From Raillietiella orientalis (Eukaryota): DNA of 64,000 nucleotides. The position numbers and the translations under genes were made by a program. Under the pieces are notes generated by a model, which saw only the letters and a program-made list of their open reading frames with translations, was not told where the DNA came from and made no database searches. The stretch lies in assembly GCA_036172245.1 (NCBI GenBank), contig JAYWIR010000023.1, positions 1,302,001 to 1,366,000 of the forward strand, read 5' to 3'. Each line of letters starts with the position of its first letter. Positions within the stretch are counted from its first letter, which is position 1. Of the stretch, positions 9,440 to 62,796 are shown one piece after another.

Positions 9440-10520
9440 TTGATTTTTCCGTACGATCTTTTCCGAAACAAAGATACGCCACAGAGTGGCACCTCCCAGG
9501 GTGAGCACCAACGTCGCGTTTCCTTACGAATGCCCTGTTTTGAACACCACACGATGCATCTTCCCGATGCACTCGTTTTCGATGGTGTACATGGCATAAA
9601 ATTTGGAGAATGTTTTCCGATGAGACGTTAGGCTTGGTAGCTGGTCGACCAGCTGTCACAGTTTCTAGAGTTGAAGATTCCTCAATAATCTGTTCAATAC
9701 ATTCGAGCAAAGAATCGAATCCATTTAATTTTCCATTCTTTTTTTTCATATAATATGAATCCGAGCACATGACGTCTAAAAGACGGGGAAATATTCTCCT
9801 TCTTTAACCTCTTTCTTGCCAACGCATGGGCTGCAATTCTACCATCGCTTCTATCCACTCCATCCATTTTTTTTCCCATAGCCAACAACCACTTCAAGCT
9901 TCTTTTTTTTTATTTTTTTTTTTATTTTTTTTACCACACCCCGTTTCTCCGTTTCCATCATTGGCTGGAGCCATGTATATTGTACTGAGGAACAGTACAT
10001 CCCTTTTGTCCCACCACTTCAATGACATGATTTTGTCATTATATCTCGCAATGTACCGACCTTAGAAAAGTTGTTTTTATATCCTCAAAGATACCGAGTC
10101 TCCACTGCCCCATTGTACCAATAACGTCTGTCTTACAAGTGTATGGTTTCGGTGTGAGTTCTACACTTGTGTACCAGTTACCCAAATAGAATGTATATCC
10201 CTGGGCTAATAGGTCATGAGAGAGTTCAAGAACGATGCGAGTAGCGGTCTTATAACGAGAATAATTTTGACCCTGTTGAAATTTCAAATTTTCTATCCAG
10301 ATTGACTTTTGCATAAGACAAAAGATTTCATCCGAAAACGACTCCTTTTAGAAGGTATATCTTCTTCTTCCAAGGCAATCTCCGTTCCCATAACAACGAG
10401 GATTCATCAACACGAATGTCTTGTTCTGGGATGCATAAGGATTTGCATTTAAGTTGGATTCTTTCTCCAAATAGCTTCAATTTTAGAAATTCTGCTTCTT
10501 GAGGTCATTTTTCGGTTACC
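9440..10520 (-). mobile_element. Decayed piggyBac-family (PGBD4-like) transposase
   Basis: IPEQDIRVDESSLLW..RLPWK; IVLELSHDLLAQGYTFYLGNWYTS..TDVIGT; KWWDKRDVLFLST; MDGVDRSD..ARKR; C-terminal RCIVWCSKQGIRKETRRWC..EVPLC. Motifs are split across frames and the DNWY catalytic D reads G. Confidence 0.9.
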
Positions 10521-16041: not shown

Positions 16042-19000
16042 CTAAGTAGAAGCAACTAACTGTTTCAGTTGTTTAAGGACTGTATCCAGCAATCGCTTTT
16101 TATCTCTTTCACTTCTTTTAAGCACTGAAAGCATTTTGCCTTTATCTGCTTCCCGAATTCTGGAAAAAAAATTACATTTAAATAAATAACTCCTTACATT
16201 AAATCATTAACTAACTTTTCCAAGAGAATTATACAGTACTGAGGGTTAACCCTGAGGTATTTACTATTTTCTTTTCCATAATCACTAAAATATGTTGACC
16301 AGTCCCAAGTCATGAAGAGATCGAGCAGTTGACGGAGGTCAAGGAAGCACATCTGCAAAGAGCCTTCTTGGAACCCTGCAACTGGCTCAGACGCTGCAAA
16401 GTCTGTAAAATTTTGTGAATAAACACTCGAAAGATCGTCTCAGCTTACGTTCACACTGAATAACATCCAAATTAACTTGTTGTAGAGCTCCCAATGACAT
16501 CTGCTTGATGTGTTCATCTAATAAGAATCCGAGAAGACGTTTGGCAATTTGTTGGCAAACACACATGCAAGCAGTTTGACAAACTCTATCCTGGAAAAAA
16601 GAATACAATTCCTAGATAAAATATTACGGAATCGGAAATACCGGTAGATCTTCAAAAGACTTAAATGTTTCTTGGAGAAAATCTATCAATTCAGCTATAT
16701 ATGGGGAGCACTGACCACTAGGTTCATGTAATAACCAATTGTACAAAGAAATCTTCACAAACTCATCCACTTTATCTCTTAGGCATCGATAAATCTGTTG
16801 TTCAGTTTCATTTCTTAAATCTTGGTACGTACTGCGGGCATGCAAAGAGATTGTCTGGATGGTACTAGCATCACTTGTATCATTTGCACTAATTACAGGA
16901 TTGGCATATATAGTGATTGAATGCATCAGACCTTAATGAGCTGTTCATGTAATCTTTTAAGCCTTCTTCGCTAGCTTCCTCCAAACACTGGAGACTGACA
17001 CTTATCTGCAAAAGATGTTGCAAATTATGTTTTGATTTCTCGAGAAATTCCATCACACATCCTTTGAAACCTTTGGTTAAAAGTAGGTTAATTGCTTTTC
17101 TCAACATATCTTCTGCTTCATTTGATCTAAATACACAAATGCAACAAACAAACCTATTTGAAATGCTTTCAAACATAAATTACCGGAGATTTAAATCACA
17201 GGAAAATTTGCAACAGTCATCGATGAAATGAAGTAACTGTTGTTGAATAGCTGGAACCATCATTGAAAAAGGAAACTTCTTTGGAAATGTCACCTAATAC
17301 AACATATTATTTACAATTTATGGACCTAACAATTTCCATTCAAATTCTCAAATCAAATACATTGAAAATTACGATCAGTTTCTCCCGAAATACTTTCTTA
17401 ATTGACGATCGGAAACGTTTTATTTTGATTACATGCCAATTTTGTTGACACTCAAATAAAATTCAATGAAGAAAATAAAACATACCAAAGATATTCATGG
17501 GAATAAAAGAAAGGCGGCACATGAACTGATTGCAGATACATATTGACATGTATTCATAGAGATTATTATCTAATAATTCCCCTGGTAGCCATTATACCAT
17601 GGAAATGCTAAGGATATGTTTTCAAAGAAAAAAAAAATCCTAGTTTTTACTCTAAAATTTTTGCAAGAGTTTTGTAAATAATAAAGGGAAATGTGAATAT
17701 TAGAACACAGGTTAAATGCTACCATTAGTTGTCTTTTTTTTTTACTGAAAGAATAGATGCAATACTTCTAATCTGTTATGTTCTATTCATTAATCTAATG
17801 TAACCTCACAGTAAATTAAGATATGTCTCAATATTTAACCAGGAGTCTCTCAGTAGATGTCAAGCACTATAGCAAGAGGACTATTTTATTTCATAACATC
17901 AGGATGTAATAAATAATGCCAACCAGTAAACAGCAATTTTTACCGTTTTCTCACTGTGAGGAAAATTACAAAAATAACGAATATTTCTTGCAACACTACT
18001 CAAAAATAAATCGTTTCACACTAAATTCAATTAAAAGAACAGTGTCAGTTGAAGATACACGTTTGTCTTGAATAGAAGCACAGTAAAGCATCCAAAAAAG
18101 TTTACATTCTTTTCTGTCCCCCAGAAGTTTCTAGTTATAAGCGTTTTGGCTCAAAAAAAATAGTTCTCAGATTTATACGAATGAAAATTTTCCAGCAAAA
18201 TAATCAACAAAATAAAAAAGGATAAATATAGAATCATATTCAACAATACCGTTTCCTCGTTTTGCAGGAAAGGAAACTGGGATATTATTTCATTGTATTC
18301 CTTCTGATTGTGTGCAAAAATAGGTTGACAGTAATCTGCATTACAGATTCTTGCAAACACCTATCAGTAAAACAATCAATTTTGACAGGTTTTACAAAAT
18401 GTTTCACTAATTTCAATTTCAGAAACTTTTGAACTTGAAGCAAACAGTAGTCATGCACACAACAGGCTATTTCTTTGATAGTTTGAAGTGAAAAGATCAT
18501 TCACTACAAAAATGCAACATTTGGCAAAAATTTTCTGGAGGGAATTAACATAATTTTCAGATTTTTTTTTTTTTAAAGAAACTCATGCTTATAAACAATT
18601 CAACAAAAGCAGACGAGTAAAAGTTTTCAAATATGCTAAAGGAGCAGAACAAAAATTTATGCTTTCTTCACACATAACATCAATGCACTGTAAAAAAGTG
18701 GAGGACCTCCCATGGTTTTAAAAAAACTATACCATAAGGAACTATTTATAAAAAATAATAAACAAAATACTTTGGAACATTTACAAATTTTTCATCACAA
18801 ACAAGAATGAAAGAAAAACTTGTAAATTAGAACTCATGCAAGACAAATGTAAACAAAACGGAAAAATTTCATTTATTTTTAAAGTACATAAACAGTTACA
18901 GGGATAGTTTCAAACAGAAACAGTTTGATTAATATGCAAACTGAATCATAATATGTAATTTATTTTAAAGCTAATCAGTTATTCAACTTCTGCTGATTTT

Positions 19001-22000
19001 GAGCACTTAAAAGAGGCAGAGAAGAGCATTCTGATCCACATTAATTTAAATGACATTACTGATATGCTACAAAATCTGTGCAGTTGGCAAAACAAACACA
19101 TCTAGAAGCAAAAAGTGCAACGTAATCATATCTCCAAAAAAGGATCATGAAGTCACAAAAACACACATAACTGTATAAATATGGATATATTTATGCAAAC
19201 ACTTGCCTGCGTGCATTCTTGCACCAAAATTTCTATATAGTGATCTTGCATATCCAACAACACAGCGCTTAATTCTTTTGCTGAATAGCCATATGCCTGA
19301 ATAATTCAAAGTGATACATAAATCACATGAGAATCCACATAGTCATGATTAATTTAAGCAAAGATTTTCTTTTAAAAGTTAGTACTTGAGATATACATTA
19401 CCTCCATACACTGACCAAACATAAGAACAAGATCTTTGATTTGAATGATTACATCATGACTAGCACACTGTGCCTACAAGAAAAAACAGTGTGACTTCTT
19501 TGATCTGTAAAATTTTCTCAAAACTACACATTAATAAAAAATCAACTAATCAACTCAGATGTACTGCAATACATCAAATGCATGAACAAAGCACTGTAAC
19601 ATGGAAAAATGAAATTAAATTACAATTTTAAATTATAAATAATCAACAAAAGAATGACAGACGTGGCTATGTGAATTGTAATTTCATTCTCTCTTACATA
19701 CATAAGAAAACAGTTGTGAATGCTGAGTAAATGAAAGAACTAAAACAATTTAGTCAATCTGCTTCTAATTTCTCATCAACATTAACTTACGATTGGATTT
19801 TTGAGAGCTGCAATCATCTTTGAAAGAACGAATTTCCACATCTCGTCCACATAAGTTTTATTTACTAAGTCAGCTGCTGTGTTCAGCAAATGATCTTCCA
19901 CCATGAAGAATCCCAGAATACCAAAGAAATATTGCTGATATTCTTCAACCGTGTTCTACATGGGAAAAATTATGAAATGAAATAACTTCCGATTACGATT
20001 TGCAATTATTGGATTTTTACTGCATCAGTTCTTGCATGCAATACCATTACCTTAGTTATGTGTTTCATGAAACTCATACTTTATGATACTTTCATTGCAA
20101 AGTGTTTTTTTTTTTTTTATGATTTTTGATAATTTGCATAAAAAAAAAAAAAGGAAATACATGTTAAAGGAAAAAAATTCGGGAGTGATTTCTCAAGCTA
20201 AAGCTTGCATGAATTTCTTATGCTCATTTCTCATTTCAGAAAAAGAAAGGATAGTTGATAGAACTACAGCAATTTACACAAAATCAGAAAACCTTTATCC
20301 TTTAAGGTTACTGTTTTTTGCAGCTCAAATTCTGAACCTCTACAATTAACAGTAAGACTACAATAATGAACTTTGGTATTGCATGCTAGTTTTTTCTTCA
20401 CATTAAAAGGCACTATGCATATGCAGAAATAGACTTCAGAAATTTTTGTTCATAAGAGTCCATGAGTGCTCTAATATACAAATATTCAAGAATTCATATT
20501 GCCACAGAACATGATTATCACGAATTTTTTCAAATTTGATCTACCACCCATTTTATGAAAACAATTTAAAACGAGCACTGCAATTGAAGATGCAATAACA
20601 AAAATGCATCAATATGAATGAAAACACAAAACATATCCCAAAATCCCTCAAATTGCATCAACATGCATTTCTTCAGTTGGCAAATCCAGAAGCAAATAAA
20701 TAAACATGAATTCATTTGGAATGAAGGGGAAAAAGAATTTGGCAGCAAGCTAAACAAGATGAATTTTGTAAAATCTCAATGGAAGAAATAAACCAATACC
20801 AGAATTCATTCAAGAAAACTGTTTGTGAAAGCAGTCTGGAATCTGTAGAATAGATAAATAAATAAAAAAAATTGATATTTTCAAAAACAAACAAATGCAA
20901 GAAATAATGAATCCTGATTCAATTTATCATGTGCATGTCTTTGAAACTATCAAGAGCATTCCAGTCCTAAACATCGTACTCTTTGCATGCCTTAATAGTA
21001 CACTTTTAACAAGCACTTCACAAATTTTGGTGTGAAATGTAAAACAAAGTTCATGCAAACACCAAGCATTTACTTGCAACATAAGTTTCTGGAAGAATTT
21101 TCTGTGGGAATATAGATTAGTTAAAGCTACTTTCTTTTCTTTAAAGTTCAATCATAACTTAAAATTTCACTGCCTTGCAAAACCTTTCAAGTCTTTTGAA
21201 ATGATATCTGAATCCACAAACCATATCATGAGACAATCTTCAATAAGATCATTATTTATTAACAAAATCAAAACTGAATATCTCTCCATAAGCAGAAATA
21301 TGAGTAAATTTTACATAATCACTAGTACTCACCATATTTAATGGAGGCTTCAGGGTCAGTTTTACCTGCTGCCATCTTTGTTTCTGATAATAGGCTATAA
21401 ATGAACTTTTGTCATCCTACAAATTTACACATTTTTTTGCATTCATTCATTATTAAACTTTATTACCAGAGCAGTATGGATGTGAAGACATCTGTACACA
21501 GGTGAAAAATCAATTAAATCTGTAGCATTGACATCTTCATCATCATTCTCTTGAAATGTTTTTACTTCTATCTCTTTTTGCTGTATGGACATCTGAGGAT
21601 AAAATCATTCATTCTGTTTTAAAGCATTACATAGTTACAGTAACACATAATATGAAAAAATCCTTTCTAAATAATATCTCATATCAAAAAAAAATAAATA
21701 AATAAATGGAGAGAAAATAGGAGCTCTGATGACATAAATAAATGCAACCAATGTTCCTACTTTTTGAAACATTGGTACTACTAGCAGGAAAATGACTGTT
21801 TGATTATAGAAAACTTGAAAGAATGAAAAATTAAAAGCAAGTTGTATGACTGTAAGATATTTCAAATTTCCTTGCTCTAAAGTCAATATGCATTCCACAC
21901 TAGGTTCCGAAATTTATGTACCTCAATTGCCTAATAGTTGAATATAATCAGCAACTTATCATATGAAGGTTGCAAAATCGTTATTTGGACCAACTCTTAC

Positions 22001-24648
22001 CTGGTTGACAGCTATGTGACCTATTCTTGGAGAGATTTCACGTATATTTTCCAAAAAGTCTTTCAATTCTACCAAAGCATCAGCCTTGATATTATCCTTT
22101 TTTTTCTGAAAACTACTTAGCATCAAACTAAAGAATCTATATTTAGGCAAGTATTTGAGATCATGATCTTGAAGTTGGTTTAAAATTTTGAGACCACTAT
22201 AAAATCTGAAATTACAAATATTTCAGCCTGATACTTGAGAATTCAAAAACTTTAGTCCTAACACAATATAGATGCAACATCTCCCAACAATGCAACATCT
22301 CCCATTCTTAAATACATTAACTTTGCAGAAAAAATCTTACTCTAAAGCCAAATATAACAATCACTAACTTCCTATCTCGTACCAGCTGCTTCATCTTTTC
22401 ATAAGTCAGCAAAACAGACTGTATTTGTTTTAATGCATTTATTACTAATGCAATGTTATAAGAACGCTGGCGAACTTGCTTCAATTCAGACTTGACATTA
22501 CAAACAGATTTTATGGATTTCTGCAAGCCATCCTCAATTCCTGCCACTTCTTCCTGAAACCATACTCTGAAGTCAAATTTTTGAGATATTGCATGCAATC
22601 AACATAAAATCAATCAAACACAAATTAGACACATATGTGAATACCAACTTCTCATTGATAATATTCATGATGAATAAATGATTAAAGATTTTTGTCATAG
22701 TGTTTAAACCATTGCTTAAACGAAAAGAAATTTTTGGGGACAAAGATAAAACAATACTGCAGCATAACCAAAACATCTAGCTTCCAGGGAGATTCTTCCA
22801 CATGTTCTGTTTCAATTCTTTCCATTTAATATCCAGTTTGTTGAATATTTGTAAAAATAATGTACATGATCAGAATTTCCGCATTTTCAAAGTTGAAAAT
22901 GCGGAAATTGCCTGGCTGACAGCTATGTGACCCATTCTTGAAGTGCTTGTTGTCCAAGTGTACAAAACATGTGATACTCTCCATTCCACGCTGTATTTAT
23001 TTATCTCAACACAAATAACCTTTATAATTCGTGAACTGAGTGAATTGCCCCAAAGTGCAAAGCATAATTTGAGACAATAGTTTTAAAGAACTTATCATGA
23101 TAAATTATTGCAAACATGATTGTCGACTGAATATCTGGTGAAAATTATATGATGGGTTATACTATCATTGTATCACAAACCTATACATTAATGTTAAGAA
23201 CCATGAAGCAACAACTGAAACTTTTACATTGTACTCTTAATTGTACATTGTACATTTTTCATCCCTTAGAGAAACAAAATAATACATCATGGTTTGTACA
23301 TGTCCTGGCATTACCAGGATGAACTGTCAGTGGCCTCCAGTAGGGTAACGAGGTGGGAATGACTGCAAGAATTCTACGAACATTTATTACACATACCAAA
23401 ATTGAATAAATTAGGAAAAAATCTGTTATTTATCCATGGTGAGATGAAGAGTGTTAGCACACAAGTAATTACGATGGGATACAGGAACAGGCTATGACTT
23501 TCCAATTAAAAGTGGCCTACATGCTTCACAATTACAGTTATCATAAACAGAAATCTACATGAATATAAACTTATCACTAAACTCAATTTGCATCTAGTCA
23601 CATAATCTGTTTCATACATAATCACTAATATAAACAACATAATTATTTTTATAATAACACATTGATAGTATAAGGGAATAGTAATACCTTCAGCTGGACA
23701 AACTTGGTACGCACTTCAAGCAGCTCCTTCACAAATTCAATGAATCCCTCATAATAATGACTACATAGTTTCTCAATTTCTTTATCATGGTGCTTTATGC
23801 GCAAGTCCAATTTCTGCATAAACTTTTCATGATCATTTCCATCGTAAATCGCTCTACAATGCAATAGGCTTACATTATTACATGTTCCAGTTATCAATAA
23901 ACTCTAATGATGCTATACTACAAAACAGCACTGCATGCTTTGTCAAATAAGCAATACTAAACAAAAGAATTAGCAATATGGTGTTAAATAAAAACTGCAC
24001 TACTCTTTGCTCTTTTCATTTCATTTATGCAAAATACTTCATGCTATGCAAAAGTTAACAAAATCATGGCAATTTCGTCAACATTCCAAACACAAAAATC
24101 TTGCTAAACTTGAATAATATCGTGCATATTACCAAAGCAGTACGTCATTGCACAAGCAGCTAAAAATCATCTAAATTTAATATCTGAATGCTCTTGCAGC
24201 TAAACTACTTCAGTTGAAACAGGCATATTCAATATCAAATACCTTATAACAGTGACAACACTTCCTATTAATGCATCCTCTGATTCATCTAGAAAATGGT
24301 CAAATTTCCCGCAAGAAATATTCGTGGCTTGATAAGATAAGATATTGAAATTCTCTCAACACAGAATTTAAAATACATTGAAACAAATAAGTCAAGGCAG
24401 TCATAAAGTACACAAGCTCTTCATATCTTTTAAACATTCGTACATACATTTCTGTTACTTATATCTTCAAAGTTATTGAGCATTGTATTATAATAAAAAA
24501 CAAAAAACAAAAAATACCTGAATGTTGGTCCCCAAAATTCATCAATTGTTTCAATTTCTGTTAAATATAGGTCATAAAATTCACTTAACAGTTTGTTTTC
24601 GTCATAAAATTGTTTTTGATTCTTAGTAGTATTCGTTTTTATACTCAT
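16042..24648 (-). CDS. EXOC6: Exocyst complex component 6 (Sec15), 16 exons: 24648-24518, 23853-23688, 22553-22369, 22205-22001, 21592-21467, 21416-21333, 19955-19791, 19473-19402, 19296-19207, 18360-18250, 17293-17184, 17126-16932, 16888-16642, 16590-16449, 16402-16216, 16159-16042
   Basis: Exons join in frame (2334 nt, 777 aa + TAG). Sec15 signatures: WGPTFR, RIKHHDKEIEKLC..YYEGFI, LKDFLENIR, DLIDFSPVYRCLHI, GFFMVEDH, PKKFPFS, DLRQLLDLFMTWDWSTYFSDYG..SKYLRVNP, ERDKKRLLDTVLKQL. Confidence 0.96.
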
Positions 24649-32400: not shown

Positions 32401-32494
32401 TGTATCACGCCCGGGAACATTTCCGAGGAAGGATTATGGGAGGATTTGAATTCCTCTAAAGGTGGATTCTGCTGCTGTGGTAGAAACTGGAGCC

Positions 32495-33100
32495 AAGTGC
32501 TGAAGAACCGTTCGCCTCCTTGGGGGAAGGTGGGGGGGGGGGGGGGAGGGAGGATCACAGAGCTCTTCAACGCTGTCCACGGCATTCGAGGATGCGTGTG
32601 GCTCTTCGAGTCAGGAGGTGACCCCAGAGACCACCCTATGACTCCAGGAAAGCTATGGAGGAAGAAGTCCGTTCCTTTTGCGCTTGGGAAGAAACCCAGA
32701 GGGGAACCTCTTCTTCATTCTCTCTGGAGGGGTCCTTTGTAGGGAGGGGGGGCATTCCTCATTTCTCCTCCGGAGGGAACCCGAAAAGGATCCATTCCTT
32801 GTTTCTTCCTCTGAAGAAAACCCCGAAGGGACGCTTCCCAATTTTCTCTGAAGGGTCGCTCCCCGAAGGGAAAAGCGCGCTTTTTGACACTCTGGAGAGG
32901 ATCAAACGGTTCCCTGTTACTCGATGGATGGGCGGCCCCATTTGCACAACCGGAGGGGAACCCTGAAGGGAACCTACGCCTCGATTCCTGGAAGGACTCC
33001 GGATGGCCAGCTTCCAATCGCAGCCAGCCAACGGGAGCATCCGATTTCCAGATTCCACGAGTTCGCCTCATCCGAATAGGCCAACCAGAGTCTTCCTGCG
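32495..33100 (-). mobile_element. Composite UUCG-hairpin repeat, copy A2
   Basis: Collinear similarity with 45160-45700, 60790-61080 and 62085-62760; repeated CCGAAGGG units. Confidence 0.75.
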
Positions 33101-33160
33101 GGGAGGGGGGGGGGGAACTGGAAACTCACAACGCACCCCTCGTTCTTGGCGCCGATCCTT

Positions 33161-33252
33161 CACCAGGTGGGATTCGAACCCGCAATGCTTGGTACCACAA
33201 CGCGCGGAGGCCGCAGCAGACACGCGGCGGCCGCCAACGCGGACCACTGGCG
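33161..33252 (-). other. tRNA-like (Leu/Ser-type) degenerate Pol III cassette
   Basis: B box GGTTCGAATCC at 33180-33170 in a GCGGG/CCCAC T-arm. Acceptor-like pairing CGCCAG/CTGGTG and A-box-like TGGTCCGCGTTGG. No clean anticodon arm. Confidence 0.6.
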
Positions 33253-33299
33253 CTAGTATGGACCCATCATCGTATAAGATGATGTACCAAAAAGGGATA

Positions 33300-38885: not shown

Positions 38886-38890
38886 CTTTC

Positions 38891-40850
38891 GGAAATAAAT
38901 TGCCCCTTCCTTGAACAGCATCTCGCGGCGTCTTCGACAAGGAGTTGAAGACGCGCGAGGAAGGCATACCGTCGCGGTAGGAAACGCACATCTCCAACGG
39001 CTTCTTGATGTCCGGAAGCTGCTTTGCAGCGAAGGATACCAGAGCGGCTCTTCTGAGAAGAACGGCGAAACGGGAAGCCAAAAGAACCCGGAAGCAGCAT
39101 CCGTCCAGAGAGAATTAGGGGTACCGAAGAATGAGAACAAGCTGCCCAGGTCCTCGTTCGGACCCACGAGTATCCTCGACGATCCCGTCGCATCACTTCG
39201 TTCGAAACTCTGCGGCAACCGATGAATCTTCGGGAGAACCCATCGCAGTTTCCGCCGCCGAGTCTTCCTGGCTACCCGGTCGGTCGCAAGCTGGAAAGGA
39301 ATGCACAAGGAGACGTCCGGCACGGGATGCAGGCAAGGCGTCATGTGGGAGGGGTCTCTCGCGTCGTCCACGCCTTTTCCGATTCGCGGTCCTCCTGCGT
39401 TCGCGGTCGTTGACACCTGTGCCGACGTCTGCGTTCGTGGACACTGTTCATCTTGGCCGGAGGCGGTCGCACGGAGAGCGAGCTCAGCACGCAGTTCGGC
39501 GGCGCGTCCACTTCGCTCCTTCCGTCCTCGCGCCGCGGCAGAAGAAGCACCTCAGCGCAGGCCACCAAGGATCCTACCTGCCACCACCAGCGCCCTGGCA
39601 GGAGCCGCCAGTTCCTCCCCCTGCCTCGAGGGACAGCTTCCCGTGTCTGTTCGTAGGTCACCATCAGCGCCCTCCCATTGTCGTCACGTGGCTTCTCTGG
39701 GCTGACCGGCAGGGCGTTGCCAATCACCTTGGGGGGAGGGCAGAGAAGGTGAAGGGATTTTCGCGCACAGGGATGCAGAACGGGCGCCTCGCCGACCCGT
39801 GCTGCCATACCGAGCACGCTCGATACTCCGCGCTCCCTGAAACAACCGCCGCTCTCACGCCCGCGCGATCCGCGGGCGCGCGCGAGTTGGCGGGTGCCGC
39901 CACTCCGCGGATCCGCCCAGATCCACGGAAGTCCTTCGGTGGTCCGCGCAGTCAAGAACGAAGAACTTGCGGTTCCTCCCCTCTTCCCTCCTTGCGTTTA
40001 AACGCTCCCGTGTTCCCTGTGACGTGGAAACAGGCGGTGTTGCTGCTCTCCCTGCACCGGGAATCAGCTCTGGCATCTCGTCTCCGGGAAACCGCATCCT
40101 GGAACTGCTCCAGGTGCGGGTCGATGGAGTCGATTCCGCACCTGCTTTCGGACGGCGTTCTCGCCCGGTCACGCCGAGGCGTCTATTTACCACAAACAAG
40201 CCGGTTGGGAAGTCGACTCCCGGCCGAAAAAGTTCCAGGGGAGGGCCCACCGACGCGCAGGACGCGACATCGAAAAAGACGCAACGGGAGGAAAGGGAGC
40301 CATGGATGAATCGGAAAGGGAGAGTGGGACAGGCGAACTACCGAGGAGACTGGCCTATCGGCGCTCTTGTACCGGGAGCACACCGCCCGCGATCTGCTGC
40401 GGCGGTTCTCCGAGTCCGACTCGGACTCTCGACCGGCGCAGTGATCGCGACGACGCCATCGTCACGTGCCCGAGACGCAGGCGCAGCGAAGGGAGGTCAG
40501 CGTGAGGACGGCCGCCAGGTGGCCTCACCTGGGAGTGGAAGGCAGGGAGGAGATCGCCGGCGCCCGTTCCGAGAGACCGCTGCCAAAGACGCCTGTCCTA
40601 CCCTCCCTTTCCGACTCACTCATGGCTCCCTTTCCTCCCGTTGCCTCTTTTTCGATGTCGCGTCCTGCGCGTCGGGCGAGAACACAGTCCGCTTAGGCGC
40701 GAGGAGTGCGGGAAGGGGCAGCAGGAATCTCGACATGGAGGGAATCCGCTCGGTGCTATGCGGCGCAGGGCGTGGACTTTCCGTGACCCGGACGCTCCTC
40801 GACGAGGGAGTCCCGTGCCTCTCTCTGTGCGCTGGAGCATGCACATGCGG
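38891..40850 (+). repeat. Left arm of a ~1.96-kb near-perfect inverted repeat (partner 56850-58809)
   Basis: Positions map as x to 97700-x. The ORF track gives identical translations (39131..40309+ equals 57391..58569-). I noticed mismatches only near the ends. Confidence 0.97.
39620..40675 (+). mobile_element. L1/Tx1-like non-LTR retrotransposon 3' fragment (zf-RVT/CCHC region + 3' UTR) embedded between viral L segments
   Basis: PVTWKQAVLLLSLHRE..WNCSRCGSMESIPHLL matches the C-terminal WxxxH..CxxC..E..H..C zinc knuckle of LINE ORF2. Related motifs occur at ~45735 and ~61650. Confidence 0.7.
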
Positions 40851-41216
40851 CAGGCATGTCTGCTTCTGTGGAGCATGATCTGTCATCCCCAAAGTGGATC
40901 TCATTCTCGGTCGGGTTCTTCGGCAAGTCTTTGCTCGGGCCTCCTGCTTCCCATGCTGCTCTTCGGTAGCTTTGCGATCTCCTGCCAGCTGGGGTTGCGG
41001 AAATCGGCGCTCTTCTTTGTAGAGCATGTACAGAAAAAGTGTGTACAGTTGCATCTCTTTTCTCCGTAGATCCTATCTGCGTTTCCCTGTTCATGCCTGC
41101 TGATGTATTCCAATCTCCACGAGAGGGCGGCCCAAGGTATTTTGGAAGTATCCAAGGAACATCTGTTTGGAACAGGAAAGGAAGAAGGCTTCAGTGAATT
41201 TCCTGCTTTTGTCCTC
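40687..41216 (+). repeat. Left arm of a ~530-bp diverged inverted repeat (partner 42901-43437); viral L CR IV-V sequence
   Basis: Reverse-complement similarity with scattered substitutions and small indels; both arms encode GGPRYFGSIQGT (PYxGSxT-like). Confidence 0.93.
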
Positions 41217-41219
41217 AAG

Positions 41220-42900
41220 TGATCCCTGCTCAGGATAGCAAACACGGAAAGCAGAAAGTGTTTGGAGAGCTGCGAGAGTCCCTCGGGTCTGTGAGAGTCT
41301 GGCTCTCGACGTCAGGGGTGCTCAGCGGCGCGCTGAGCTGCAAAAGCATCCCTCCGACGAATATCCTTCCTCTCCTCGAGCGGCCTCCGAGAAAATGCAA
41401 GTGGGCAGGGGAGATGACGTGATTTCCTTGCCCCTCTTGAGCTCACCCTTCCTCTTCTGACCTATTGACACTTCTCCGCACCGTAGGCACGGATTCCATT
41501 TCTCTCGCGCGGAGGACGCGATCAAAAAATACCAAAGGCGTGCCTGTTGAAAGAAACGGAGAAGAGGGGCGCGCAAATCGCTTGTTTGCTCTGTGCAGAT
41601 CATGGGGGGATTGTGTTTTTCTGAGGAGGGGGGGGGGGGGAACTAGTCACTCTTTAGGGAAACTTCTTGGAACGTCCCTGAGTACTGTTTCCCGGGTTTG
41701 GATCAAAGAGCGATCCCAGATCCCGGCTCTTTCGCCGAACCGCCCCTCGAAGAACGCATAATGGGGAGCAGCACCCGGATTTGGAGCTCACAGCCGCATT
41801 CCCGGAAGGGGGAACGTGTTTTCCGGCAGGCAGACTGCAGCTCGCTCACGAATGCGTGGAGCCGTAAACACGGATTGCGTGTCCGATAGCATGCGTGCCC
41901 TTCATTCCACATTCCCTGTCTTCCAGAGAGCCGCGTCTCGAGCCTCGTCGTCGACGAGGCACGAGCGAATGTCCACCTCCCACCTTCCTTTTCGTCTCTC
42001 GCAGCCCCCTTCGCTGCAGAAGGGCAGGCACGAGGCAGAACGCTCGCGGGCCAGGAGACCTCAGTTGCCCTTCGGTAATGGTCTTCCCCGAATTTAGTAG
42101 GCGAGTAGCAACCTGCGTCAGCAGAGGGGGGAAGTCGCAGAAATCCCTGAACCGGGAAATGGAGCAAGGAGTGGATTCCTCAGCGTCACTCCTCCGTGGA
42201 GCCGAGGCCACGAGGGGAAAGGCTGAAGGCGAACGCAGCAAGAGCTCTCTCCTCGTCTGTGAGGAGAGCATTAGGGAATTCGGTCTGAAAGGAGTATGTT
42301 GCTTGGATCCTGTGATTTGCAGTCCATGTCGGTGGGTAGCACAATTGAAGGACATGTGAGAGGAGAATTCCAGTCATATCTTGCTAATCGGAGTCGCCCT
42401 GCAGGAAGTTTCTTCTGAAGCTGCAGAAGCGCGTGGGTTTCTCGTCCGCTTCTCCGGTTGCTCACCAGCTGGCGTAACGAGCTGATGAACATCCAGAGGT
42501 CAGTGCATGCACCGTGTGCCCTGTGACAGCGGACAGATCGCGCAAGCGTGCCTGTGAGGTGCGGCGGAAGGCAGGGGGAGAGTCCGGGCTTCCTGATATT
42601 CAGCGTCCACTACGAGTTGGCGCTGAAGGCAACGTAGACGGCGCCGAAGAACTTGCCAAGCTCGTTTCCCGATGCCCTGCCCGTGTTCTGCCTGCGTCGA
42701 CGATTTGTCGCTGTTGCCGGACGTCCACCCACGGTGCTCACTTGGATTCTTCGTGCCGACTCGTCAGGATGCGGTCACCATCGACTTCACGGCAAGTCGA
42801 CGGCCGCTCCTGTAGTTCGTGTGTTACCGGATCCTCTTGGGTATCCTCCACAGACATATCTTTAGGTTCCTTGGCATCCCTTCCTGAGCAGTAATCACGT
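41220..42900 (-). pseudogene. Endogenous viral L fragment: N-terminal region to motif F
   Basis: LLTQVATRLLNSGKTIT (GHP region), LRAPLLRFF (RRxL region) and VSIGQKRKGELKRG (~41431-41472; KERELK). Confidence 0.62.
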
Positions 42901-45130
42901 AAGGACAAATAGCGGGAAATTCACTGAAGCCTTCCTTTCCTGTCCCAAACAGATGTTCCTTGGATACTTCCAAAATACCTTGGACCGCCCTCTCGTGGAG
43001 ATAGGAATACGTCAGCAGTCATGAACAGGGGAACGCAGACAGGATCTACGGAGAAAAGAGATGCAACTGTGCACACATTTTCTGTACATGCTCTACAAAG
43101 AGGAGCACCGACTTCCGTACCCCCAGCTGGCAGGAGATCGCTGAAAATCGAAGCTTCCGAAGAGCAGCATGGGAAGCAGGAGGCCCGAGAAAAGACGTTG
43201 CCGAAGAACTCGACCGAGAATGAGATCCACTTTGAGGATGACAGATCACGCTCCACAGGAGCCGACATGCCTGCCGCGTGTGCATGCTCCAGCGCACAGA
43301 GAGAGGCACAAGACTCCCTCGTCGAGGAGCGTCCGGGTCACGGAAAGTCCTCGCCCTGCGCCGCTTAGCACCGAGCGGATTCCCTCCATGTCGAGATTCC
43401 TGCTGCCCCTTCCCGCACTCTGCACGCCTAAGCGGACCCTGGAGTTTTACAGTCTCTCCCTGTGGTCTTTAAGAAAGAGACTGTAGTTTGTTGTGGCTGT
43501 TCGTCACGCCTGGGGTCTCAACGAACGCATCCAGCATATTTTTCAAGAGTGCTGGACGTTGGAGCACACCATGTTCTTCTGCTTGGTGCCTGGGGATCTT
43601 GTATCCCCTTCAGCACCTCCTTCAGCTGTACTCCTTGTCACTCGTGCTCCCGGAGATCCTTCCACCAGTGATCGTATTGGTGCTGTTTCGGACACGAAGC
43701 GGCGAACCCATCCTCGGTATTGGCTCTCCTTGAGCTGAGTGTTGTCGGATCATCCGAAGCCGTTGCGAGGTTACTCGAAGGGGCAGAAGGCGTCCAAATG
43801 ATAATGACTCCCGCATCTCCCTGGAGCTCCAGCTTCAATCTGGTTCCAGGTGTCGGCAAGCTGGGGGCCAGTGAATCCCAATGTTTCCAGCTATCCTTTC
43901 TGATCCAGCTCGCTAGTCTATCATGCCTGTAGGCGAGAAGGCCGGGAATGCTGACGTAGCGATCTGGAACATGAGACGGGTATTCTTTCCCACGTCACAT
44001 ATGTTTTGCTTCTTTGGCCTACGCCATTCATGTGAATAATGCTCGAAGAGTTCTTCATGTTGAGTCGTCCTCCGTGGTCTAGTATGGAGAAGGCAGAACT
44101 GCTGGAGTGGACTCGCAACTCCAGAAAAAGCAAGCCTTCCAGCGTCTTTCATACCGAACTTTCCCACATGGACCGGAAGCTGAGAAATGAAAAAGAAAGG
44201 AGCAGAGAAGGAAGATCGGCATTCGTTTTCGGAAGCAGTGTCGGGATGAAAGTGTTCCACGAAACGGACCACTCTCTGCACTAACCGGTCCGGAAGTGAA
44301 AGCAACCGAGAAAACGGTCATCCTCATTCGGATGTCATGAATAGGGACGGGTGACAGGAAGCGAACCCCATGAGAGCACATCAATAGGGAATGCCAAGGA
44401 AAAGATGGACTGACTGTGAAGGAAATGGCGACGCGAAAAATTTGAAGGCTGCCATCTGAAGAGCTGCAGAACGCGGAATAGTCGGAGAGGACGAGGCCTC
44501 GAGACAAGGACGCTCAAGCAGCAGCTCGGTTCGAAGTGCAAGGCATTCAGGGACGGAAAAGTCACCTACCTGCAGCCAGGATCCAGAAGGCGCGCTAACC
44601 GTTGTTTGCTTGGTAGTTGGTCCTCATGCAAACATTCCCTGCCGGTACGTCCATCGAGCAGGATTGCCACGATGTTTGCCGGACGGGAGACAAGAGGTAA
44701 ATAATCAGCGACACTGCGCGAAGGAGCTGCTTATTTGCTCGGGGCGCCTCTCATGATTGCACTTCACCCTGGTAGCTACCAGAACTTCGAATTCAGCCTG
44801 ACGAATTTGCTGCTGCACCTCTGCCCGCCTCCGTTGCTCAGAAATGCTCGCATCGAGGGCGACGCATGTCCCTCCAGAGCTTTCCATGAAGCGGTAGAAA
44901 CTGGAGCGGTAGAGTGGAGATTCGTCTTCTTCCTCGGGAAGAAGAGGTCCTCGAAGATGGCTTCTTCCTGAGCTTTGGACACTCCGTGACGCCGACCTAA
45001 AACATCCAACCGTCCTCGAAGAAAAATGGTGCCATTTTGTTTGTTGTTGTTTTTGTTTTGAGCGTTGAGCAGAGGAGAAATGCCCCTCTTCTTCAGTTTC
45101 CTATGCTTTCGGAGTCTGGAGGTATCGGAA
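42901..45130 (-). pseudogene. Endogenous viral L fragment: motif B to CR V
   Basis: WKALEG (motif B-like), QGEVQ remnant at ~44757-44772, QLPVHVGKFGMKDAGRLAFSGVASPL (~44105-44182; cf. rhabdovirus LDPSLGGVSGMSLSRFLIRxFPDP), DDPTTL and PRYFGS. Confidence 0.78.
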
Positions 45131-45159
45131 GCAACCAAAGCTGACCTCAGAGTATTCCT

Positions 45160-46312
45160 CGAGAACCATTCGCCTCCCTAGGGAGGACTCGCTCTTGAAC
45201 GAGGGAAGCTCTTGAACACTGCCCACGCCACCCGAGGGTGAGTTTTACTCTTCAGTTTATAGGGAATAACCCTAGGAGGGGACCACCCTATGAATCCAGG
45301 AAGGTCCCGGAGGAAGGAGTCGGTTCCTCTTACGCTTGGGAGGGAACCTCGAAGGGAACGTATTCCCTATTCTCTCCCGAGGGACCCCCCGGAAAAGGAC
45401 ACTACTCGTTTCTTCTCCAAAGATACCCGGAAAGGATCCGCTCCTTGTTTCCTCTTCTGAAGAGAACCCTAGAGATACTGAACCCCTGAAGGGACGATTC
45501 CCATTTTCCCTGAAGGGTCTGCTCCCCGAAGGGAGAAGCGTGCTCTTCTTACACTCTGGAAAGACAGTTCCTCGAGGAGGCGGCTCCCTTTTCACAACCA
45601 GAGGGAAATCCCGAAGGGTACTGGCTCTCCTTGATTCCTGGAAGGACACTGGAAGGTCAACTTCCACTCCCGGCCAGTCAACTGGCTGTTTCCGGCTCCC
45701 ACCAGTGTCGCACCTCCAACGGCGCGGTGGGCAGGAATCCCTACCGCACCTCCTAGTGGACTGTGTTGCCCTCCGACACCTTTAGGGACGCTTTGTTGCA
45801 ACCCTTGTAACCCCCGGCGGCAATACCAAAGACATTTTAAAGCTCCTCTTCCTGCGCGATGTCCTCACGCCGGCCGCATCCCTAGCAGCACTTTGCTGCC
45901 CACGCAGCGGGACCGTAGCTGCATGGAGCAACGTCAGAGGAGGCCAGAACGACAGGTGCGCCATCTATTTTGCTGTCCTCTTCATGAGGACAGCGTCAAG
46001 ATGGCCCCTTATGGGAACCATAAAACAGGAACTTGCAGGCATCCTTACAGGGATGCAGAGGACGCCCTCCAGCACACATTGATTCCTTTCAGCATCCCCT
46101 TATTCCATTTTTTGACTGTATATTTTTTGTTTAAATTTTTTTTTCTTCTGTTTGTCTCTCCTTCCCCTGTGCTGTCAAGGCGAACCCCGCTGACCTTCGC
46201 GCCAGTTCCGGCAGATTCCTTCTCGTAGTTATAAGTAACGCGGCAGTATCAAACGTCCTGCCACAGATATTGTATGTTTAATTTATAAATAAATACATAA
46301 AACTAAAATAAA
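45160..46312 (+). mobile_element. Composite element copy A3: hairpin array fused to LINE zinc knuckle, ORF2 end and AT-rich 3' tail
   Basis: 45160-45620 matches A2/A4, then DSWKDTG..QRRGGQESLPHLLVDC. 45730-46070 resembles the reverse complement of 61330-61660. Ends in AATAAA-containing AT-rich sequence. Confidence 0.72.
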
Positions 46313-46315
46313 TTA

Positions 46316-46380
46316 TCCATAAATTAAAATTTTATAAATAAACTTATAAATAAGCCCCGGTGTGACCGGGTGTCAACTAG
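46316..46380 (+). mobile_element. Possible 65-bp mini-Helitron or Helitron 3' terminus
   Basis: A|TC start, hairpin CCCGGT-GTG-ACCGGG (46356-46370), then CTAG|T (46377-46381). Confidence 0.45.
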
Positions 46381-46384
46381 TGAC

Positions 46385-46930
46385 GCACCCACAGACCGGG
46401 TTTCCTGAGCACAGAGTCTGACCCTGGTTCCTTCCCATCCGTTCCAGTCCGGCGCGAGCCCATAGGGAAACATGCTCGCCACCGTAAGAATCCAGTCCAT
46501 CTCATCCCTATTGACTGATTCGCTTGGTGGTCTCGTGTCATCGCCCTTCATCGTCGACCTCCCCCAGGGCGCTTCGTATCTTTTCGCTGCGGGTCGACAC
46601 TTGCTGGACTCTTTCCATGGCAAATGCGAAGACTCCAGAAATAGTGAAAGCACTCTTCCCTCATTTTTCCCGTATGCTTGAACTTTTTGAGGATAGATTA
46701 TCCGTTTTAAGGCAAACACCAAGCTTAATGTCTGAGGATAAGCGCCGGCGCTGATGTTGCAGCCTTCAACCCGGCATAAAACTCGAAGAGCAGGGATCGA
46801 AGCTATCAGACAGCGGCCTTCCCGAATACCCTGAATGCGATGTTCCTCCCAATCCCGATACGTTGGAAGTGGAATGCATGGATGTGGAAGAAGAGGGGTC
46901 GAACCAACTCCTGCGGTGAGCCCCAATCCA
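46385..46930 (-). pseudogene. Possible rhabdovirus-like nucleoprotein fragment (long open frame)
   Basis: R..GRCLIASIPALRVLCRVEG, AYGKNE and PPSESVNRDEMDWI loosely follow the C-terminal half of rhabdovirus N. Confidence 0.38.
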
Positions 46931-46999
46931 AGCCATCAGATTCATAGGCCGAAAAAATTTAGAATGAGAGGATGGACCCGTAGTCTACACGGCAAAGAC

Positions 47000-51199: not shown

Positions 51200-52847
51200 A
51201 GATGTGCCGTTCACGGAGGATTCCGAGGACCTGCATCCCGATCCTCAGACCACCGCCCAATCTGAGGATTAGATTGGAGGTCTCGAGGTGTGCCCGAGAC
51301 CGCCAAGGCAGGGGATGAATCTGTTCACTTTCAGGTTCGGGAACGCGCCAGAGGCTCTCAGACAGCTCCAACGTATCCTCTTGCTTCCGCATGGGTCAGA
51401 GAAGATGAACGTCATCGTGTTACCCGTTAGATCGAATCGTTTGTGGACTTTACCACAGAACGAGGAAAAAAGATTGATCAAACCATTCAGCAGCCCGTTC
51501 CCTACGAAAATTACTGCCCTCCTCTGCTTCACCCTAGAATGTCTGGTTCTCGTCGGAGTGGAAGGAAAAAAAAATATTATCCAGTAAAGCCAGTGATTAG
51601 GGGTTCCGAAGTATGGACCATCTTGAACTTGGGTGAGATGACTGAGAAGTTTGGCTCTCTCTAGCGATGGAGCCCGGGTCGTCGGATCCCCAGCGGTCTC
51701 ATTTTGGTAAGCAAAACTGGCTCCGAGGGATGAACCAAACAGTAGGTAAAGACTCACCCAATGCGGAGCTCGTCGGATCCCACGAAAAATGCTGGTTGCT
51801 GAGGACAGCAGGATCGCAGCATCTTTTGTCTGCGTTTGGTTTTCGCAGCACGTGTTCATGGGGGGCTCAAGCAACGACGGAGGAATTCCCAGCATGGCCA
51901 TCCTCGAGCCGCTCCGTTCTGCTGATAGAATCGGTCCAAACTGAATCCACGATTGGTTCAATTGGGACCGACTGACTCATCTTGTGCCTCCAGCAAAGAT
52001 GTTTTTAGAGCGTTAGATGGTTGAGAAGACCATCTCCTTCCTCAGCTCTTCTGCTTTCTTCTTCGAAGCCCTTGGCTTCTTGAGTACATCGTGAGTATAT
52101 TCCTAAGTACATTCTGAATGCTCGCAGAATCCCATGATCTCAGGAATCCCACGGCGACTTGTTTCTGGAGTTATCCTTCGAGGCAAGCCAAAGAGTCGGT
52201 CCAAGACAGTTGCTTTTGCTTTCCAACCTTGCTCCTCTGGTGCCGCGGCGGAGTGTCCTTGTTGCCACGCTATCTCGAAGATGACCGGTATGCCTTCTCG
52301 CTGGGAGAAGGGAAGCGAATCTTCTGAGATCATGGAAGCAGGAATCCTCTGAGGAGTGCTCAATGTCTCTCCTGTCGAAGTACCTGACCCTGAAAACGCA
52401 TGGCGCTCAAGAGTGGAGCCTGAAGCCAGCCGCCGAGAAAGAGCCACTTCTGTTTCCGCCTTCAGTATAGATCTTATTTGCAATCACTGCAACGAGATCT
52501 TGCAGTTCTGTTGTGGCAAGGGGTTCCATGAGAACAGCCTTTGTCTATGGTTTGGATGATTTTAACTCCCCGGAACTTGAACGAGAACGCGTCCTTGCAC
52601 AAGTTTTTGTAGGTATCGCTTGGGAACGGGAGCTAGCTGCATCCGTTTTCTTATGGAGCATCTCGAAAATTTCATTTCGTTTTCAGAAATCCAATGAACG
52701 CCGACCGGTAAATTCATTAAAAGCCACGGACAATCACATTTTTCACATAAAGACGTTTGCTGCACACAGAAGCAGACGTCTTCAATAAATGCCGACTGGT
52801 GCATTTGCAGCAAACGTTGCCGAACGGGAAAAGTTCCTATGACAACG

Positions 52848-56250: not shown

Positions 56251-56849
56251 AAAGCTGATATCAATGCGAGTCATCTATACTTGTTTTTAAAAAACAGCAA
56301 CCGCAGCAGCAGAAGCAACAAAAACATAAATATAAAAAAAAACCACTGAATTTTCTCCGTGGAAGACCCAGCAACCTCCCTCCCTCTTCCAAGTGCCACA
56401 TAATCGCATCGCTTTGAGTCAGACACAAAATTCCATAGATAATTCCGCTTCTAAGAAGTGCAAGACTTCATCAGAAAATGCCGAAGATGCCGTGGCATTC
56501 GACACGAAGGTGAATTGTGCAGAGAAATCAAACAGATGTGAGTAAAGTAAAGCTGCTAACACGAAGCCGTTGCGAACCACCCTATGGCTATTCCACCTAC
56601 AGCAGTTGCGGGAAGAATCCAGTCGTTCACTCCAGATGCAGACCTAGGAGTGTTCATGTCCTATGTGGCACCTGAAAAGATCAGCAGGCCGAGCAAGGAC
56701 ATCAGAATATAGGTCCTCCAATATCTGATGAGCAGTGTCCATCTTCGTAAGTCCGAGTGCCCTGGACTTACGAAGAAGCCGAACTGAACATGATACCAGC
56801 TCTCTGGTGAGTACACGTTTGGTCGGCTCACAGCGAGCCAAATCACCTC

Positions 56850-58809
56850 CCGCGTGCGCATGCTCCAGCGCACAGAGAGAGGCACAGGACTCCCTCGTCG
56901 AGGAGCGTCCGGGTCACGGAAAGTCCACGCCCTGCGCCGCATAGCACCGAGCGGATTCCCTCCATGTCGAGATTCCTGCTGCCCCTTCCCGCACTCCTCG
57001 CGCCTAAGCGGACTGTGTTCTCGCCCGACGCGCAGGACGCGACATCGAAAAAGAGGCAACGGGAGGAAAGGGAGCCATGAGTGAGTCGGAAAGGGAGGGT
57101 AGGACAGGCGTCTTTGGCAGCGGTCTCTCGGAACGGGCGCCGGCGATCTCCTCCCTGCCTTCCACTCCCAGGTGAGGCCACCTGGCGGCCGTCCTCACGC
57201 TGACCTCCCTTCGCTGCGCCTGCGTCTCGGGCACGTGACGATGGCGTCGTCGCGATCACTGCGCCGGTCGAGAGTCCGAGTCGGACTCGGAGAACCGCCG
57301 CAGCAGATCGCGGGCGGTGTGCTCCCGGTACAAGAGCGCCGATAGGCCAGTCTCCTCGGTAGTTCGCCTGTCCCACTCTCCCTTTCCGATTCATCCATGG
57401 CTCCCTTTCCTCCCGTTGCGTCTTTTTCGATGTCGCGTCCTGCGCGTCGGTGGGCCCTCCCCTGGAACTTTTTCGGCCGGGAGTCGACTTCCCAACCGGC
57501 TTGTTTGTGGTAAATAGACGCCTCGGCGTGACCGGGCGAGAACGCCGTCCGAAAGCAGGTGCGGAATCGACTCCATCGACCCGCACCTGGAGCAGTTCCA
57601 GGATGCGGTTTCCCGGAGACGAGATGCCAGAGCTGATTCCCGGTGCAGGGAGAGCAGCAACACCGCCTGTTTCCACGTCACAGGGAACACGGGAGCGTTT
57701 AAACGCAAGGAGGGAAGAGGGGAGGAACCGCAAGTTCTTCGTTCTTGACTGCGCGGACCACCGAAGGACTTCCGTGGATCTGGGCGGATCCGCGGAGTGG
57801 CGGCACCCGCCAACTCGCGCGCGCCCGCGGATCGCGCGGGCGTGAGAGCGGCGGTTGTTTCAGGGAGCGCGGAGTATCGAGCGTGCTCGGTATGGCAGCA
57901 CGGGTCGGCGAGGCGCCCGTTCTGCATCCCTGTGCGCGAAAATCCCTTCACCTTCTCTGCCCTCCCCCCAAGGTGATTGGCAACGCCCTGCCGGTCAGCC
58001 CAGAGAAGCCACGTGACGACAATGGGAGGGCGCTGATGGTGACCTACGAACAGACACGGGAAGCTGTCCCTCGAGGCAGGGGGAGGAACTGGCGGCTCCT
58101 GCCAGGGCGCTGGTGGTGGCAGGTAGGATCCTTGGTGGCCTGCGCTGAGGTGCTTCTTCTGCCGCGGCGCGAGGACGGAAGGAGCGAAGTGGACGCGCCG
58201 CCGAACTGCGTGCTGAGCTCGCTCTCCGTGCGACCGCCTCCGGCCAAGATGAACAGTGTCCACGAACGCAGACGTCGGCACAGGTGTCAACGACCGCGAA
58301 CGCAGGAGGACCGCGAATCGGAAAAGGCGTGGACGACGCGAGAGACCCCTCCCACATGACGCCTTGCCTGCATCCCGTGCCGGACGTCTCCTTGTGCATT
58401 CCTTTCCAGCTTGCGACCGACCGGGTAGCCAGGAAGACTCGGCGGCGGAAACTGCGATGGGTTCTCCCGAAGATTCATCGGTTGCCGCAGAGTTTCGAAC
58501 GAAGTGATGCGACGGGATCGTCGAGGATACTCGTGGGTCCGAACGAGGACCTGGGCAGCTTGTTCTCATTCTTCGGTACCCCTAATTCTCTCTGGACGGA
58601 TGCTGCTTCCGGGTTCTTTTGGCTTCCCGTTTCGCCGTTCTTCTCAGAAGAGCCGCTCTGGTATCCTTCGCTGCAAAGCAGCTTCCGGACATCAAGAAGC
58701 CGTTGGAGATGTGCGTTTCCTACCGCGACGGTATGCCTTCCTCGCGCGTCTTCAACTCCTTGTCGAAGACGCCGCGAGATGCTGTTCAAGCAAGGGGCAA
58801 TTTATTTCC
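56850..58809 (-). repeat. Right arm of the ~1.96-kb inverted repeat (L CR IV-V + LINE 3' fragment + L piece)
   Basis: Reverse complement of 38891-40850. Confidence 0.97.
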
Positions 58810-60770: not shown

Positions 60771-60789
60771 TAGATCCCATAATAGACGC

Positions 60790-62760: not shown

Positions 62761-62796
62761 CTGCAGAGGGGACTCTTAGCCCCCGACGAACCTATT

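Follow-up and report, generated by a model that had tools for sequence, protein, structure and literature searches.

The region analyzed here is a 64,000-nucleotide window of the genome of Raillietiella orientalis (contig JAYWIR010000023.1), the features of which are listed in Table 1. It contains four copies of a repeat, parts of two LINE families that have inserted into two of these copies, a multi-exon exocyst Sec15/EXOC6 gene, a fragment of a piggyBac-type transposase, and a 1.97-kb inverted duplication with 99.7% identity between its copies. The duplicated segment contains an internal 86-bp inverted repeat and shows a weak match to a LINE zinc finger. The original prediction for this window described a composite element consisting of UUCG hairpins, a LINE remnant and a tRNA-like cassette in four diverged copies, and the relatedness of the four copies is borne out both by BLAST comparison of the window with itself (68–82% identity) and by profile hits.

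Table 1. Features of the 64-kb window, with positions counted from its first base.
Feature	Position	Strand	Basis or remark
Antisense piece of another subfamily-B copy	2643..2723	-	abuts head of copy 1
Copy 1, young subfamily B	2720..3255	+	nhmmer, B positions 2-72 and 519-1023
piggyBac-type transposase fragment	10042..10347	-	DDE_Tnp_1_7, E 7e-7
Sec15/EXOC6 gene, multi-exon	16197..23903	-	Pfam; AT-rich stretch without SINE hits
Copy 2 (flagged), SINE subfamily A	32492..33249	-	nhmmer 650 bits, model positions 5-706
Hairpin-unit array of copy 2, ~41-44-nt units	32600..32900 (limits approximate)	-	consensus unit decomposition, CTTCGG counts
"DSWKD..W" reading	32983..33006	+	antisense frame of SINE consensus
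tRNA-derived head of copy 2	33169..33249	-	B box 33181-33169, read from sequence
1.97-kb inverted duplication	38886..40854 and 56846..58814		99.7% identical
Partial third copy of the duplication	42882..43437		
Copy 3, SINE subfamily A positions 159-700, headless	45156..45714	-	nhmmer 445 bits
LINE-II insert in copy 3	45715..46375	+	antisense to SINE, at the fixed site of the family
L-like frame, first	46327..46935	-	
L-like frame, second	51272..51976	-	
Copy 4, SINE subfamily A in three pieces	62878-62589, 62256-62076, 61076-60784 (span 60784..62878)	-	nhmmer
LINE-I insert in copy 4	61077..62075	-	sense to SINE, where two hairpin units join
332-bp insert in copy 4	62257..62588	.	unrelated to LINE-I or LINE-II

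Copy 2, on which this work is centered, extends from the head to position 706 of the model and ends before the A-rich tail; it contains no LINE and differs from the subfamily A consensus by 14%. In copy 1, the relatives of which are 75–85% identical to it, an internal deletion joins the head to position ~519 and the sequence stops short of the terminal hairpin. The inserts in copies 3 and 4 each consist of a 5′-truncated ORF2 C-terminus and a 3′ UTR. That in copy 3, which belongs to a family that we will refer to as LINE-II, includes a CCHC zinc finger and is flanked by a duplication (positions 45701-45714 and 46376-46389), and that in copy 4 (family LINE-I) has a short duplication of approximately AAGAAAT on either side. 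The 332-bp insert, which is also present in copy 4, matched itself alone among 294 loci. The predicted LINE ORF2 remnants are real in copies 3 and 4, but the DSWKD..W motif that had been counted among them is, judging from the consensus, encoded by the SINE body when read in antisense. This motif is lacking in two long natural ORF2 sequences from the same genome, whose best match to the SINE consensus had an E value of 0.12, whereas one of the two matched the inserts of copies 3 and 4 (tblastn E values of 3e-28 and 4e-22).

A search of the 210-Mb genome with copy 2 gave 4,784 first-look candidates, of which the 40 that were scored were spread over many contigs with about 67–77% identity, and 30 loci that were fetched shared a common block of about 0.7–0.8 kb within mostly unique flanks. 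In a sample of 40 stretches of 10 kb each, which were chosen blind at round-number positions, 15 SINE segments representing 13 elements were detected, accounting for 2.05% of the bases (0 segments in shuffled sequences); genome-wide, this extrapolates to ~7,900 segments with a 95% interval of 4,400–13,000. The copies fall into an older subfamily A, with a consensus of 807 nt, and a younger subfamily B, with a consensus of 1,045 nt, the median divergence from the subfamily's own consensus being 18.7 and 5.6%, respectively. A pattern placed in the terminal hairpin of subfamily B had 134 matches in the genome versus 0 for the control, and the anatomy of the element was studied in 30 loci that were chosen by means of this hairpin. 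The start base was identical in 21 of the 30 and a T-run with an A-rich tail closed 28 of them, while target-site duplications of at least 12 nt, mostly of A's at their start, were present in 13 of the 29 loci scored, two of these 13 being copies of one insertion. LINE coding sequence joined upstream of the SINE was found in none of the 30 loci, either with profiles or by reading of the junctions, and the open frames over the SINE parts of the window contain no Pfam family. At its 3′ side the element has an internal A-rich tract, which is followed by the terminal hairpin, the T-run and the A tail.

The tRNA-like cassette, which had been described as the end of two copies, is present and carries a B box; however, the SINE, which reads on the minus strand at copy 2, begins with this cassette at its 5′ end, and three copies possess it, including copy 1 (positions 2720-2793). 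In comparisons with 53 distinct tRNA sequences from the same genome (62 found, 60 fetched and 59 called), the heads of both subfamilies were best matched by tRNA-Arg(CCT), with identity in 49 of 72 and 49 of 71 columns (68–69%) and scores exceeding those of all 100 shuffles. The runner-up tRNAs were close in score (Arg 56 vs. Asn 55, and Arg 54 vs. Gly 51), and the derivation of the head from tRNA-Arg(CCT) should be regarded as uncertain. Neither Rfam nor ARAGORN called the head as a tRNA; within the 64-kb window no tRNA was found by ARAGORN, and no Rfam family reached the cut-off in the window, in 12 loci or in the two heads.

When these characteristics are compared with the description of SINEs in SINEBase (PMC3531059), the repeat resembles the head/body/tail SINEs of that resource in being interspersed in more than 100 copies and in having a tRNA-like head and a simple tail. 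Its heads show the identity to tRNA of at least 60% over at least 60 nt that is used there, and its tail and target-site duplications occur without coding capacity. As in SINEs covered by this source, its subfamilies differ by internal duplications, and CHRS provides a precedent there for a tandemly repeated body motif. In contrast to the 175 families listed, which span 75–662 nt without the tail, the SINE described here is longer than all of them; subfamily A lies within the 1-kb limit of the definition, whereas B is slightly above it. The position of its A-rich tract, internal and followed by hairpin, T-run and A tail, also distinguishes it from the SINEs as presented in SINEBase. These results support the view that the repeat is an undescribed-looking tRNA-headed SINE of an ordinary kind, ~0.8–1.05 kb in length, and of the options raised in the original prediction, that of an undescribed tRNA-headed SINE is the one favored by the constant start base, the tail, the duplications and the tRNA-like head.

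The SINE is most likely transcribed by Pol III, as is indicated by the B box and by the lack of any TTTT run in the A or B consensus; transcription would proceed from the internal boxes to the T-run and the RNA would then gain an A tail. A-rich duplications together with an A tail are a sign of L1-type mobilization, and an L1-type LINE enzyme may copy the SINE RNA into A-rich nicks by target-primed reverse transcription. A LINE sharing the 3′ hairpin of the SINE, which would be a candidate for the mobilizing partner, was not seen among 30 loci. A third abundant LINE family was considered as the partner and rejected, its 3′ ends being unrelated to the SINE hairpin, and the lack of poly(A) in LINE-I and LINE-II counts against either of them in this role.

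Several individual copies depart from the usual anatomy. Two full-length B copies (L112 and L122) terminate with T's and lack an A tail, a search for duplications around them was negative, and in L112 a TATA-like stretch is present ~30 nt upstream; these are candidate source copies, or they may have lost their tails. Four A copies (L003, L008, L018, and L025) carry a 5′ extension of ~15 nt that is complementary to the head and gives a longer hairpin, and the subfamily-B head folds as a rod (z -4.0) instead of a cloverleaf. Four B copies (L042, L043, L050, and L054) stop at the internal A-rich tract yet have duplications, which is the expectation from internal priming.

The repeated UUCG hairpin motif that had drawn attention to this locus is confirmed as a one-sided feature. 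CTTCGG occurs 4, 2, 2 and 4 times in copies 1–4 and never on the opposite strand, and it is present six times in the A consensus and five times in B (none in antisense, and about 0.5 in shuffled sequences). Decomposition of the consensus shows that the SINE body consists of tandem units of ~41–44 nt with the joint CCCT(C/T)C^GGAGA; in copy 2 the CCC-TTCG-GGG loops are located in this array, which went undetected by Tandem Repeats Finder. The body would have grown through tandem duplication of a hairpin unit of ~42 nt, and the UUCG loops recur because the array arose as duplicates of one such unit. An alternative view of the array is that it is the selected structure of a functional Pol III RNA, comparable to BC1, with the repeats as its retrocopies. 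The strand-confined excess of CTTCGG is in keeping with such an RNA, as are the ending of L112 and L122 in T's without an A tail and the folding of the B consensus, which is better than that of shuffled sequences in some windows (z of -4.0 at the head and -4.7 near the 3′ end). However, copy 2 folds no better than its shuffles (z -0.20), the windows of the A consensus range from z -1.3 to +1.0, no Rfam family reached the cut-off, and the loops, as copies of one unit, are not independent of each other. Covariation, which had been suggested as a check, was examined for four stems in 30 subfamily-A copies (582 cells), where 101 pair-breaking and 56 tolerated single changes were counted, as well as 11 double changes that retain pairing and three that break it. 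The retention of pairing in 11 of the 14 double changes and the slightly lower divergence of stem sites (14.0 vs. 17.3% for other G/C sites) could be cited for selection, but a similar number of double changes (estimated ~13) would be expected if the mutations had occurred independently, and the 101 broken pairs speak against it. No clear covariation is thus seen in the stems, and their changes are those expected of neutral decay, any signal being weak at best, this test being one in which dead copies of a single master cannot reveal selection on the master. We therefore regard a selected BC1-like RNA as an unlikely explanation and the array as a product of unit duplication.

The original prediction also placed the copies at the junctions of viral fragments, and in one case within a fragment of a viral L gene. 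No search confirmed any viral fragment in the window. Viral Pfam families were absent among its 419 open frames of at least 65 aa (frames wholly inside the second copy of the 2-kb duplication being omitted from the scan), and the two candidate L-like frames (Table 1), which by eye we take to resemble decayed mononegavirus L motifs, had no viral hit in PDB. For one of them no viral hit was obtained among 1.84 billion representatives or in the Atlas, and for the other none in a set of 5.8 billion. A genome search for PF00946 and PF14318 gave no match, but as the controls were likewise unmatched, this result carries no information. The window, which was selected for having SINE copies, contains four SINE elements where 2.1 are expected (P 0.16), or six segments versus 2.4 expected (P 0.036), and SINEs make up 4.2% of its bases compared with 2.1% in the sampled stretches; a mild local excess is therefore possible. 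For the proposal that the repeat is a structured spacer which was co-mobilized with viral cDNA and marks the junctions of viral fragments, one can point to this roughly twofold density and to the two frames that appear L-like by eye. Against it are the thousands of SINE copies dispersed throughout the genome, whose density roughly accounts for the number in the window, the duplications that SINE copies have of their own, and the failure of the Pfam, PDB, representative, homolog and Atlas searches to confirm viral sequence. This proposal is extremely improbable, and the SINE copies next to the putative viral remnants are best described as ordinary background insertions with no shown viral link.

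The LINE-II family, to which the insert of copy 3 belongs, has 2,661 candidates in the genome, and over 232 aa of the ORF2 C-terminus it is 68.5% identical to LINE-I. In the best 15 LINE-II loci, the SINE head was located directly 3′ of the LINE, in antisense and at the identical base, in 12 cases, and the SINE body was present on the 5′ side in 13. In these 13 loci the LINE varies in length from 570 to 1,577 bp and is flanked at either end by a copy of the duplicated target motif. A second sample was drawn without regard to the flanks by taking 20 of the 310 exact matches of a LINE-only motif (three previously listed loci were skipped), and in 15 of the 20 (14 of 19 without one duplicate) the SINE head directly followed the LINE 3′ end; of the remaining five, four begin with the first target bases and one is without the LINE end. 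The sequence spanning the LINE-II/SINE junction, which is situated ~105 nt behind the B box, has 204 matches in the genome versus 0 for the control. In 10 loci, the LINE-II parts were 84.5% alike and their SINE flanks 76.5%, compared with 74.6% for 15 empty heads; LINE-II is thus younger than its flanks and entered SINE copies among which divergence had already taken place. Beside one LINE-II insertion, which is present in duplicate (L169/L170; G000:C12:1749308-1749380 and 1758183-1758255), the truncated SINE head is closely followed by a true tRNA gene.

LINE-I, for which 3,152 candidates were found, enters the same SINE in the opposite orientation. All 29 matches of a LINE-only motif were examined, and in 24 of them (21 of 26 without duplicates), one of which is copy 4 of the window, the SINE followed directly at the 3′ end in sense. 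The LINE joins the SINE at GGAGA of two different hairpin units (85 and 15 junction matches, with 0 for the controls), at ~400–500 nt from the B box. The 5′ ends of LINE-I are variable, with a range of about 100 bp to more than 1 kb; at the 5′ junction, duplications were clear in only a handful of the 29 loci, and two copies outside the SINE are found at a look-alike site with duplications of 10–14 nt.

These observations make it very probable, in our view, that LINE-I and LINE-II have inserted independently and site-specifically into copies of a tRNA-headed SINE, and that the copies in the window are part of its ordinary background. Independent targeting is indicated by the variable 5′ ends, by the duplications and by the younger age of the LINEs relative to the SINE flanks. 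The tests applied are those by which Kojima separates targeting from hitchhiking (PMC4494074): a single repeat type, the SINE, accounts for 75% of the flanks in LINE-II and 83% in LINE-I, where more than 20% is called for, and 5′-truncated copies exist in both families. The hitchhiking explanation, which is implied by the title of the original prediction and holds that composites were multiplied from a single chimeric SINE-LINE master or a small number of them, would account for the constant 3′ junctions, some loci are indeed plain duplicates (L194-196, L202/203, L169/170, and L209/210), and one third-family LINE with SINE positions ~390–740 in its 3′ UTR (L295) indicates that chimeras do form. 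However, within SINE copies that are otherwise collinear the 5′ ends of the LINEs vary, and the inner junctions show duplications; the LINE-II parts, at 84.5% identity, are younger than the SINE around them (76.5%); the antisense orientation of LINE-II does not allow truncation of a composite from the inside; at least two hairpin units serve as LINE-I sites; and T-runs in the LINE-I 3′ UTR would be expected to stop Pol III. Amplification of composites has accordingly little to recommend it, and we consider it very unlikely.

Under independent targeting, LINE-I and LINE-II, two L1/Tx1-like families that are related to each other and lack poly(A), would later have used the thousands of SINE copies as landing sites. 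The simplest cause of the site choice would be recognition of DNA sequence by the presumed APE endonucleases of these families, which are known from their 3′ parts. The main mechanistic rival for LINE-II is tethering to Pol III factors at the SINE B box, in the manner of TRE3 of Dictyostelium. The position of its site falls within the window of 40–150 bp reported for TRE3 (PMC5911963), but LINE-II inserts at an exact base, its copies outside the SINE begin with the same few bases, and it is antisense where TRE3 is sense. LINE-I inserts far from the B box at joints of a repeated sequence, and the young relatives described below enter the coding sequence of LINEs, where a B box is absent. Neither family thus combines a position 40–150 bp behind a B box with the same orientation, and we judge tethering to be a quite unlikely substitute for recognition of DNA sequence.

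A search for intact members of LINE-I or LINE-II using protein sequences revealed only decayed close copies and young relatives with ~58–61% identity; a long candidate (L226) proved fragmentary. One young relative is intact and encodes an ORF2 of 1,217 aa with an RVT_1 domain (E 7e-22), whose C-terminus is 58–67% identical to those of LINE-I and LINE-II; in this protein zf-RVT is below the cut-off and the APE motifs are recognized by eye, with no Pfam hit. The database proteins nearest to it are 24–30% identical. LINE-I and LINE-II can be described as L1/Tx1-like and as possible members of the Tx1 clade. Eight young relatives with visible 3′ ends (L225 and L227-L233) share a common terminus without poly(A), and none of them is in the SINE; in all eight LINE sequence follows, which in some was identified through BLAST or translation and in others by eye. 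Four of these join at the same RT motif (one in sense and three in antisense), and the motif at which two more join is similar to the LINE-II target. For the third LINE family, an antisense insertion in the SINE near position 590 (L145/L300; G000:C2:7160226-7164430) is possibly a third SINE target site, and in L295 (G000:C27:2959600-2961060, minus strand), a single locus, ~360 bp of a subfamily-B array with 74% identity precedes the normal terminus. As the relatives and the third family also enter retroelements, several families in this genome land in other retroelements.

The original suggestion of a Tx1-like element beside its target holds in spirit for copies 3 and 4, except that the target is the SINE and not a tRNA gene; that of an internally deleted element does not, as the LINE pieces in these copies are 5′-truncated insertions, and a spacer co-mobilized with viral cDNA finds no support in the genome-wide dispersal and the unconfirmed viral fragments. 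Two of the outcomes that had been named beforehand as contradicting the original prediction were indeed obtained, namely a spread of the element over the whole genome and hairpins without clear covariation. Among Tx1-clade LINEs, the main text of Kojima (2015; PMC4494074) describes Tx1L in Tx1D (a piggyBac element), Tx1-Mar in Mariner-N4_AMi and Tx1-9_AMi in Harbinger, as well as Tx1-8_Crp and Tx1-4_AMi, which target LTR elements; snRNA and 5S genes and microsatellites are also targets in this clade. LINE-I and LINE-II share with these LINEs the fixed site and orientation in an interspersed repeat and the independent 5′-truncated insertions, and an ORF2 with APE, RT and zinc finger may also be common to both, to judge from the intact relative. 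They differ from the Tx1-clade LINEs of this source in that the target is a SINE, and that each of the two families has its own site and an orientation opposite to that of the other, with a repeated unit as one of the sites. With TRE3 and TRE5, as portrayed in PMC5911963, they have in common that they are of L1 type and occupy a defined location with respect to a Pol III gene; however, the position specificity of the TREs extends over a window and is linked to Pol III factors, whereas LINE-I and LINE-II insert at an exact base and at a sequence motif, and do so outside the SINE as well. The presence of LINE sequence amid a SINE-like element is reminiscent of the SINEs with LINE-derived bodies (Kojima, 2018; PMC5786205), but the LINE part of the latter is described as a fixed module from the 5′ regions of RTE or Vingi, in contrast to the variable 3′ pieces that were inserted here copy by copy. 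No SINE-targeting LINE was found in the literature searched, which lay mostly outside subscription papers and the supplementary target lists of PMC4494074. The use of a SINE as a LINE target may be new, LINEs that target other transposons being already known.

A broader scenario may be considered, in which a radiation of poly(A)-less LINEs has endonucleases that are specialized on other retroelements, viz. on each other's coding motifs and on two or three SINE sites. SINE and LINEs would then co-evolve, the LINEs gaining thousands of safe sites and disabling an element that competes for LINE enzymes. In this view, the hairpin array would be a multiplied LINE target and not an RNA fold. This scenario is speculative and on balance rather doubtful.

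Taken by itself, the SINE merely adds a family, of unusual length, to those known, and the targeting of it is of greater importance. The results also call for caution in annotation, since nests of LINEs in SINEs mimic composite SINEs. This SINE would join the sequences that have been adopted by target-specific LINEs, and two sister families of LINEs, with 68% identity between their ORF2 C-termini, use different sites and orientations in one host repeat. Together with the intact young relatives that hit LINE coding motifs, LINE-I and LINE-II would form a natural series on the change of APE specificity, a change that bears on tools for site-specific gene insertion.
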